Position numbers and translations under genes: made by a program. Shown piece after piece: positions 58,671-58,829 of a stretch of DNA of 59,357 nt. The notes beneath the pieces were generated by a model. It ran no database searches. It saw nothing but the letters and a program-made list of their open reading frames with translations, and was not told the origin of the DNA. How positions within the stretch are numbered: position 1 is the stretch's first letter; each line of letters starts with the position of its first letter. Source of the stretch: a virus (lineage: Duplodnaviria > Caudoviricetes); IMG/VR virus record IMGVR_UViG_3300042486_000337, positions 1 through 59,357 of that record; one strand, given 5' to 3'.

Positions 58671-58710
58671 AAAAACAAAAAACCCCAAACTTTTTTTAGA
58701 AGTTCGGGGT
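58671..58710 (-). terminator. Attenuator terminator 2
   Basis: 40 nt identical to 54369-54408. Confidence 0.85.
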
Positions 58711-58751
58711 CATATTATAAATTTTATATTATACTATCCTATATTCGAACT

Positions 58752-58829
58752 TCAACAACGCATACCAAACGAGAAACAAACTTCGTGTTGCTCGACAAAT
58801 GATGATATATGGTTTATTGATGTTCTCAT
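58752..58829 (-). CDS. Leader peptide 2 (MRTSINHISSFVEQHEVCFSFGMRC)
   Basis: 25-codon ORF; codons match downstream tRNAs; antiterminator GAAGTTCG overlaps the stop codon. Confidence 0.75.
   Translation of the reverse strand: MRTSINHISSFVEQHEVCFSFGMRC

Follow-up and report, generated by a model that had tools for sequence, protein, structure and literature searches.

Why would a virus place a short open reading frame (ORF) and an intrinsic terminator immediately ahead of its own transfer RNA (tRNA) genes? The question is raised by the minus-strand region 58884..58671 of IMG/VR virus record IMGVR_UViG_3300042486_000337, the whole of which (59,357 nucleotides (nt); estimated completeness 20%; G+C content about 30%) was analysed and is referred to here as the window. 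A total of 18 tRNA genes were detected by ARAGORN, every one on the minus strand, from 58586 down to 52945, and they form two arrays. Array 2 (58586..55643) directly follows the region in question, and array 1 (54283..52945) lies further downstream. As judged from its sequence and its relatives, the region is probably a functional, tRNA-sensing, ribosome-mediated attenuator of transcriptional read-through into array 2.

Read along the minus strand, the cassette begins with a promoter-like site (TTGACA, 16 nt, TATTAT; 58884..58857) that has 11 of 12 matches and lies about 28 nt upstream of the leader ATG. The site is kept before all homologous leaders, only five such sites exist on the minus strand of the window, and it may function as a promoter. 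Leader ORF 2 (58829..58752) starts with ATG and comprises 25 codons followed by TGA, with codons 3–21 as the proposed sensor. It lacks a Shine–Dalgarno sequence, as do 50 of the 54 window ORFs of at least 120 codons; a Shine–Dalgarno-like 4-mer stands upstream of only four of them, which would fit a host from the Bacteroidota. The octamer GAAGTTCG (58753..58746), the putative antiterminator or region 2, covers the G and A of the TGA and spans positions +1 to +8 of the stop. It is the exact 8-nt complement of CGAACTTC (58706..58699), which lies within the 5' arm of the terminator. This intrinsic terminator (regions 3 and 4; 58711..58671) is formed by a stem-loop (58711..58681) with a 12-base-pair stem, five G-C pairs, and a 7-nt loop (−16.4 kcal/mol), and by a T run. 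A preliminary description made from the window sequence had proposed the ORF, the octamer over the TGA, and its perfect 8-base-pair complement in the terminator, and all three were read directly at the claimed minus-strand places. The tRNAs that it had assigned to array 2 (Val-TAC, Glu-TTC, two Phe, His, Ser-TGA, and one with the anticodon CAT) were likewise recovered by ARAGORN downstream on the same strand, where the eight canonical calls are Val-tac, Glu-ttc, two Phe-gaa, 'Thr-tgt', His-gtg, Ser-tga, and the CAT tRNA.

The codons of leader 2 largely follow this content. A match at 15 of 18 positions had been claimed for codons 4–21, and the count is correct under its two stated assumptions, that Val-UAC reads all GTN codons and that the CAT tRNA reads ATA. 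Without the second (Ile2) assumption it becomes 13 of 18, as foretold, and under strict wobble 11 of 18. Over the whole ORF, array 1 strictly decodes 5 of 24 codons and array 2 13 of 24. The value for array 2 compares with 24.4% in the 22 long ORFs of the window (binomial P = 0.0016), and 261 of 100,000 random gene segments reach this score. A cognate codon is present for all seven canonical array 2 species under relaxed pairing and for six of the seven under strict pairing, which 483 of 20,000 random gene segments achieve. The Ser codons of leader 2 are only TCA and TCG, and the array encodes Ser-tga. As for RNA structure, dinucleotide shuffling of the upstream region produced a complement of at least 7 nt to the terminator arm in 36 of 2000 cases, and leader 2 as a whole folds better than shuffles (z = −3.0; 1 of 200).

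Each of these single-locus figures is modest, and the strength of the case comes from the paralogue and the relatives. Codon (P about 0.002) and complement statistics of such moderate size could also arise if a spurious ORF happened to lie in an AT-rich spacer beside the terminator of upstream genes. A chance origin would fit, too, with the absence of overall enrichment in the 7.4-kilobase region, where 27 promoter-like sites were found against 22.2 expected and nine terminator-like sites against 5.7. However, none of the 234 other short ATG ORFs in the window reaches the matched fraction of leader 2, and further evidence against chance comes from the relatives described below.

Array 1 is preceded by a paralogous cassette (54615..54376, minus strand), which comprises a promoter-like site (54615..54588), an ORF of 36 codons (54548..54438), the putative antiterminator AGTTCGG (54470..54464), and a terminator (54412..54376). 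The stretches upstream of tRNA-Val (314 nt) and of tRNA-Pro (357 nt) align with 80% identity. They are the same over approximately 40 nt around the terminator, both have kept the promoter-like site and two downstream motifs, and the ORF has diverged. The 27-nt terminator core of leader 2 is repeated identically at 54407..54381. This common core is found in the two strongest terminator-like sites of 52000..59357, and two of the three best promoter-like sites there likewise belong to the cassettes. The amino acids of leader 1 are those of array 1, in which ARAGORN detected Pro, Ile-gat, Lys, Cys, Trp, Tyr, Gln, Arg-acg, Met, and, after a 106-amino-acid ORF, Ser-gct. Array 1 strictly reads 21 of the 35 codons, compared with 5 of 35 read by array 2, and all ten of its species are covered, which only 2 of 20,000 random gene segments match. 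The sensor part uses AGT for Ser and CGT for Arg, and array 1 holds Ser-gct and Arg-acg. The peptides of leaders 1 and 2 matched no Pfam or PHROG family at E values up to 1, and cmscan of 52000..59357 at E up to 1 returned tRNA and weak chance matches only, with no T-box and no curated Rfam leader (His, Thr, Trp, Leu etc.).

Leaders and arrays in related and cultured phages

Homologous or analogous cassettes were found ahead of tRNA arrays in more than 20 viral contigs and in two cultured Bacteroidota phages. Every relative and analogue has an ATG ORF of 22–36 codons in the corresponding position, and the peptides are conserved in the first codons only. Statistics were calculated for 13 non-redundant leaders under strict wobble (14 leaders for the permutation of terminator arms), by comparing each leader with its own array and with the other array of the same record, and by permutations. 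The leader region (314 nt) had no blastn match among 50,697 deposited phage records, and the array 1 region matched single tRNAs only. The 27-nt terminator core is present in eight stretches of seven viral contigs and in one contig of a metagenome-assembled genome. The latter contig (L174; JBAXAJ010000017.1, 4662 nt; Candidatus Shapirobacteria) contains a variant of the leader together with the identical terminator and tRNAs for Val and Glu; in all likelihood it is a mis-binned phage fragment and thus gives no host information.

Two lineages carry the core. One is window-like (L004, L005 with L006, and L009), and the other (L003, L007, L008, and L010) has one leader ahead of a merged array of Val, Glu, Phe, His, Ser-tga, Ile, Lys, Cys, Trp, Tyr, Gln, Arg-acg, Met, Ile-tat, and Ser-gct. 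The leader of the merged array holds the codons of both window leaders; 26 of its 32 codons are strictly matched by the complete array of L003, with 15 of 15 species covered. A comparison by eye with window leader 2 shows that one block of five residues has been retained despite three synonymous changes. In L010, another leader (447..530) with a different terminator precedes Pro/Asn/Gly/Gly/Asp/Thr/Ala...Leu/Arg-tct/Leu, and the two arrays of this lineage, according to their tRNA lists, jointly cover all 20 amino acids. A candidate HNH-type endonuclease ORF, recognized by its Cys/His motifs, lies inside the tRNA array of L010 (864..1400). In the window-like contigs L004, L006, and L009, the Lys gene is absent between tRNA-Ile and tRNA-Cys and the preceding 78-nt spacer is 97–99% conserved; the difference is a recent gain or loss of a single tRNA within the array.

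Wider scans and fetched contigs yielded the distant phages G001, G002, G003, G004, and G005, whose arrays differ in make-up and each have matching leaders. A further 35 loci (L139–L173) have only the 18-nt leader start in common; a tRNA lies within 260 nt in 11 of them, ten of which carry the full cassette, and the remaining 24 have neither tRNA nor cassette. A broad motif scan added 118 loci (L011–L128), mostly chance matches, only 19 of which have at least three tRNAs or a tRNA at most 120 nt after the match.

Leaders were found to match their own array better than the other array of the same record. The own and other matches are 17/26 vs. 6/26 (leader 447..530) and 24/32 vs. 5/32 in L010, 19/28 vs. 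7/28 and 23/26 vs. 3/26 in G001, 23/33 vs. 7/33 and 11/22 vs. 8/22 in G004, and 15/30 vs. 6/30 and 10/22 vs. 8/22 in G003. The third leader, from the near-identical relative of the window (L005 7523..7437), matches its own array at 18/27 codons and the two others at 2/27 each; it uses AGA three times, and its array contains Arg-tct. Summed over the leaders, including those of Cellulophaga phage phi4:1 described below, 213 codons are read by the own array only and 74 by the other array only. Coverage of own-array species is similarly high elsewhere (14/14 and 9/9 in G004; 9/9 and 14/15 in G001). When arrays were permuted among the 13 leaders, the 230 observed matches were not reached in 200,000 permutations (mean 150.7, maximum 221), a significance that is an upper bound and overstated because homologous leaders are not independent. 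Permutation inside two leader families reached the observed value in 11 of 720 and 2 of 5040 cases. The simpler criterion that the own array should be the best-matching array failed, holding for 3 of the 13 leaders.

Independent evidence lies in rearrangements of tRNAs between arrays. In L010 and G001, Pro-tgg belongs to the first array, and Pro codons occur in the leader of that array and not in the leader of the Val array. In the window lineage, where Pro-tgg is in array 1, three Pro codons occur in leader 1 and none in the first-array leader (L005 7523..7437), whose array starts with Asn and lacks a Pro tRNA. In G003, the Tyr tRNA and the Tyr codon are both in the second unit. One case took the form of a prediction. 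The G001 leader 6336..6419 matched at only 8 of 26 codons with the tRNAs first in view, and the codons left over would need tRNAs for Ile, Lys, Cys, Trp, Tyr, Gln, Arg, and Met. Exactly those eight tRNAs were then found downstream, in the remainder of the contig, and they raised the match to 23 of 26.

Among the proteins encoded in the window are a major capsid protein of the T4 type, a portal protein, and a large terminase, and the record represents a large T4-like phage, probably with a host in the Bacteroidota. The closest cultured relatives by capsid protein are Flavobacterium phages (42% identity). The nearest of them, Flavobacterium phage immuto, was considered as a cultured carrier and rejected, having just three tRNAs and no leader cassette.

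Cassettes of the same logic were found in two other cultured phages. In Cellulophaga phage phi4:1 (KC821632.1; L135), an unannotated ORF (6421..6489) and a terminator directly precede seven tRNAs (Pro, Glu, Gln, His, Leu-tag, Leu-taa, and Arg-acg); 11 contiguous codons of this ORF are read by these tRNAs, all seven of which are represented. A second phi4:1 ORF, gp075 (7345..7464; 39 amino acids from a TTG start, with the likely start at 7378), is annotated as 'hypothetical protein' and is followed by a terminator and by Ala, Lys, Ile, Gly, Met, Asp, Thr, Val, Arg-tct, Met, and Tyr tRNAs. It is composed of those amino acids and, on these grounds, appears better read as the leader ORF of a tRNA-array attenuator. 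The next candidate, gp076, which precedes Ser/Asn/Trp/Phe, was rejected as a leader because just 6 of its 32 codons match and it lacks a terminator. In Tenacibaculum phage Gundel_1 (MT732474.1; L137), an ORF (4439..4501) and a terminator stand before Phe, Ser-tga, an odd tRNA, and Ser-gct, which are themselves preceded by two tRNA-like genes just under the Rfam threshold. If the anticodon loops of the three odd genes are read as Tyr, Trp, and Cys, ten contiguous codons match; with the ARAGORN tRNAs alone, 6 of 19 do. An ORF annotated as an HNH-type endonuclease lies inside the Gundel_1 tRNA array (5294..5800). In both phages the promoter fits the Bacteroidota type and the ATG follows within a few nucleotides. 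Their cassettes have no sequence in common with those of the window; either the device is ancient and evolves fast, or it has emerged more than once. The constant position of the ORF, the permutation results, and the presence of the cassette at ten of the 11 loci with a nearby tRNA, compared with none of the 24 without one, make a chance origin very improbable.

The predicted switch and competing explanations

The pairing between the leader and its terminator varies together with the lineage. In 11 of 13 leaders, a segment of 6 nt or more is perfectly complementary to the 5' arm of the terminator and lies at −30 to +8 of the stop, 27–51 nt before the stem. The arm sequence differs between lineages and the complement varies along with it; in leaders 1 and 3 it is AGTTCGG, which in frame gives two Ser codons. 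When the arms of the 14 leaders were permuted, the observed Watson–Crick helix sum of 95 (mean 66.6, maximum 88) and the sum of 104 with G-U pairs allowed (mean 77.8, maximum 98) were each reached in 0 of 100,000 permutations. The codon-to-tRNA link and the antiterminator-to-arm link, both of which had been proposed beforehand, thus covary across lineages. The further proposal of a classical attenuator geometry gains comparative support, with the short ORF, the antiterminator at its 3' end, and the terminator directly before the tRNAs present in every relative examined.

When the nascent RNA was folded up to the terminator loop, the arm paired with the antiterminator segment in most leaders. 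For leader 2, folding with the ribosome footprint masked gave 9 of 12 arm nucleotides paired when the A site was at codons 2–22, where the antiterminator pairs with the arm, and 3–5 of 12 when it was at codons 23–26, where the antiterminator does not. The idea that a ribosome at the stop would mask the antiterminator therefore fits both the geometry (+1 to +8) and this footprint-mask folding, which is a model and not a measurement. Without a ribosome only 5 of 12 arm nucleotides are paired, because in the folding model the first codons pair with the antiterminator. This 1:2 hairpin, between the first codons and the 3' end of the ORF, is seen by eye in the dot-bracket minimum free energy (MFE) structures of the folded leaders. 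In leader 2 it joins region 1 (codons 2–6; 58814..58825, minus strand) to region 2 in both MFE and centroid structures when no ribosome is present, and region 1 is marked as tentative, since the hairpin is no better than shuffles.

We infer from these features that the leader is translated and that stalling governs read-through. Transcription would start from the promoter-like site, and the 25-codon leader would be translated co-transcriptionally, its sensor codons forming an inventory of those that the downstream tRNAs read. If any such charged tRNA were scarce in the combined host and phage pool, the ribosome would stall within codons 2–22, GAAGTTCG would remain free to pair with the emerging 5' arm of the terminator, no terminator would form, and the polymerase would continue into the tRNA genes. 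If all of these tRNAs were plentiful, the ribosome would reach the last codons or the stop and cover GAAGTTCG, so that the terminator would form and transcription end. If the leader were not translated, pairing of its first codons with the antiterminator may again lead to termination. The predicted outcome is a negative feedback from tRNA supply to tRNA-gene transcription, with OR logic over the tRNAs of the array, and the leader 1 cassette would work likewise for array 1. The shortage may stem from the phage's own codon demand, host shut-off, or host anticodon nucleases, and the physiological role may be homeostasis or a response to depletion of host tRNAs.

The same anatomy could also sense general translation capacity, as affected by host shut-off, stress, or antibiotics and in the manner of the ermC or cat leaders, with the codon list being incidental. 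The presence of one to four codons per tRNA and the lack of runs would suit such a device, and the inducible tRNA array of Anabaena responds to translational stress (PMC8421152). However, this explanation leaves unaccounted for the preference for the own over the other array (213 vs. 74), the isoacceptor choice, the near-complete tRNA coverage, and the codons that follow moved tRNAs, and it is unlikely.

A part of the locus left out of the earlier account of the attenuator concerns the space behind the terminator. The geometry itself stands, but between the terminator and tRNA-Val lies the promoter-like TATCTTTG box (58644..58637, minus strand), a possible second promoter, followed by the conserved motif GTTCTTTGAAAT (58615..58604) in the 5' flank of the first tRNA. 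The motif family has three copies, ahead of tRNA-Val, tRNA-Glu, and tRNA-Pro. The box has 13 copies in the window on both strands together. On the minus strand it precedes tRNA-Val (58637-58644), tRNA-Glu (58473-58480), and tRNA-Pro (54338-54345), and also ORFs (57246-57253 and 55601-55608), being about 18 nt ahead of small ORFs that start at 57221 and 55582. It varies among the relatives of leader 1. The box fits TAnnTTTG, which we take to be the −7 element of Bacteroidota promoters, and it is probably the −7 element of a promoter of this type. The cassette might then be an independent small unit that encodes a small protein or a small RNA, with the tRNAs transcribed only from the TATCTTTG box and the terminator acting as an insulator. 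In support of an independent unit, the box and the conserved motif stand between the terminator and the tRNA, the box is used before ORFs as well, and gp075 of phi4:1 has been annotated as a hypothetical protein. Nevertheless, no protein family was recognized, the peptides of 22–36 codons diverge past the first codons, and neither the codon-to-tRNA match nor the covariation of the arms would be explained. In phi4:1 and Gundel_1, moreover, the tRNA lies within about 10 nt of the T run, which leaves no room for a promoter in between, so read-through is the only evident route to the array. A separate unit of this kind is quite unlikely.

Several observations weigh against control of the arrays by tRNA-sensing attenuation. 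About 95 nt separate the terminator from the tRNA in the window lineage and hold the TATCTTTG box and the conserved motif; promoter function of the box would mean that the array has a second, independent source of transcription, of which the attenuator modulates only a part of the total. The leader of G002 and the first leader of G003 have a Watson–Crick complement of only 4 nt; with G-U pairs allowed, that of G003 extends to 7 and that of G002 stays at 4, with no convincing antiterminator. The 1:2 hairpin of leader 2, taken alone, is not better than shuffles (z = −1.35; 23 of 200). In leader 2, 11 of 24 codons are not strictly read by array 2 (Arg AGA, Ile ATA twice, Asn, Val GTC and GTT, Gln, Cys twice, Gly, and Arg CGT), leader 1 contains Asn codons although array 1 lacks an Asn tRNA, and L004, L006, and L009 have no tRNA-Lys gene, yet their leader still has four Lys codons. 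Besides the overstatement of permutation significance noted above, the own array is the single best match for no more than 3 of 13 leaders, since the number of codons read grows with array size. Finally, there are one to four codons per tRNA and no runs, and stalling at a single hungry codon is an assumption. In view of all this evidence, tRNA-sensing attenuation is still preferred for the window. We lean slightly towards the broader proposition that Bacteroidota phages of several unrelated genera autoregulate their tRNA arrays by 'catalogue' leaders with about one codon per downstream tRNA gene, any single shortage turning on the whole array.

The CAT tRNA and other features of the window

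The CAT tRNA (55964..56039) has positions 1:72 paired and an anticodon stem without three consecutive G-C pairs, so by criteria commonly applied it appears not to be initiator-like. It clusters with CAT tRNAs of relatives located outside arrays or at an array edge. Blastn against E. coli genomes matched tRNA-Arg (E = 3e-5) and tRNA-Ile (E = 2), and against phages it found matches annotated variously as Arg, Met, Ile, and Lys. Genes of this class may resemble the bacterial Ile2 tRNA. The use of ATA in leader 2, compared with mostly ATT or ATC in leader 1, is a suggestive, though circular, hint at its identity.

Array 2 also holds more tRNA-like genes with inserts and three small ORFs. Five paralogous tRNA-like genes were found on the minus strand (55642-55759, 56632-56737, 56892-56991, 57287-57367, and 57489-57615). 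They have the acceptor stem, D arm, and T arm in common and differ in their anticodon-region inserts (81–127 nt in total length). The anticodons given by ARAGORN in intron mode are inconsistent, and the Rfam tRNA model scores 36–40 bits for three of them. The 'Thr-tgt' call is one of the five and has two mismatches in the anticodon stem. The five genes could be tRNAs with introns, or they could form a class of tRNA-like RNA of their own. The tRNA-Trp call in array 1 (53706-53792, minus strand) may hold an insert as well, with 87 nt compared with 72–74 nt in the Trp tRNAs of relatives.

A third promoter-like site of the TTGACA, 16 nt, TAT type is located directly after tRNA-Ser-gct (52907-52934, minus strand). 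It precedes a 54-amino-acid ORF (52858..52694) with a lipoprotein-like signal, a hydrophobic stretch followed by Cys, and the array of G001 is also trailed by a similar small ORF. On the plus strand, a 670-amino-acid ORF (45433-47445) matches the PHROG 'ATP-dependent protease' (E = 4e-236) and is Lon-like, an unusual cargo for a phage.

Comparison with known systems

No description of attenuation control of tRNA genes was found in a full-text literature search, the coverage of which left out supplements and subscription journals. The mechanism itself is known, and control of tRNA genes in such a form is apparently new, although an earlier description is possible. The roles of phage tRNAs are debated and include compensation for codon usage, replacement of degraded host tRNAs, and escape from tRNA-targeting defence. 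If the attenuator reading is true, phages measure tRNA availability and adjust their own tRNA output, and the cassettes would be the first case of tRNA genes controlled by attenuation and would act as an internal sensor of attacks on the tRNA pool. Leader-peptide attenuation, which to our knowledge is little documented in Bacteroidota, would be extended to RNA genes, to viruses, and to this phylum. The leaders would also reveal the codon assignments of the individual phage tRNAs, such as ATA for the CAT tRNA. As an annotation rule, such leaders would be marked by a small ORF and a terminator that precede a tRNA array and by codons that reflect its content, and gp075 of phi4:1 would be re-annotated. 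Two cultured phages with their hosts (phi4:1 and Gundel_1) make the system directly testable.

At the sequence level, the cassettes have the ORF, cognate codons, terminator, and covarying antiterminator of leader-peptide attenuators, and they lack the defining features of T-boxes and of the curated Rfam leaders. T-box riboswitches are similar in using a terminator/antiterminator switch that reads tRNA status and in having translation-related targets. However, a T-box recognizes uncharged tRNA by direct binding to its specifier codon and T-box sequence and needs no translation, whereas the phage cassettes have a putatively translated ORF and no large structured leader. In the ermC and cat leaders, a stall in a short ORF remodels the downstream RNA. 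These leaders sense a drug-bound ribosome on a specific nascent peptide and mostly act on translation initiation of the next gene, unlike the cassettes described here, in which a terminator stands before RNA genes.

The trn operon of Anabaena sp. PCC 7120 is comparable as a supernumerary, horizontally spread array that is silent by default and induced on impaired translation (PMC8421152). Its control is ascribed to co-regulated promoter motifs; in the main text of that article, the terms attenuat-, leader, and terminator are absent, and no codon catalogue is described. Closer in mechanism are the pheST operon with its pheM leader and the His leaders before hisS paralogues of bacilli, in which a component of the translation apparatus is under leader-peptide control by charged tRNA (PMC2965389). 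These leaders control genes of aminoacyl-tRNA synthetases and each respond to one amino acid, and neither the phrase tRNA genes nor tRNA operons occurs in that source.

The best-known leader-peptide attenuators are those of the trp, his, thr, ilvGMEDA, leu, and pheA operons of proteobacteria. The cassettes resemble them in the short ORF with regulatory codons, apparently translated, the intrinsic terminator, and a competing antiterminator that would be masked near the stop. A 1:2 hairpin, if it forms, would be a further likeness, and the multivalent sensing recalls the thr and ilv leaders. Attenuation in amino-acid operons has also been modelled (PMC1183508). In contrast to the leaders of amino-acid operons, the cassettes are phage-borne, probably in a Bacteroidota host, and match no Rfam leader family. 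They have no runs of a single codon, and up to 15 tRNA species are represented, mostly once or twice each. Above all, the targets here are tRNA genes and not enzymes, and the signal would be the supply of the very products of these genes, which would make the control autoregulatory.

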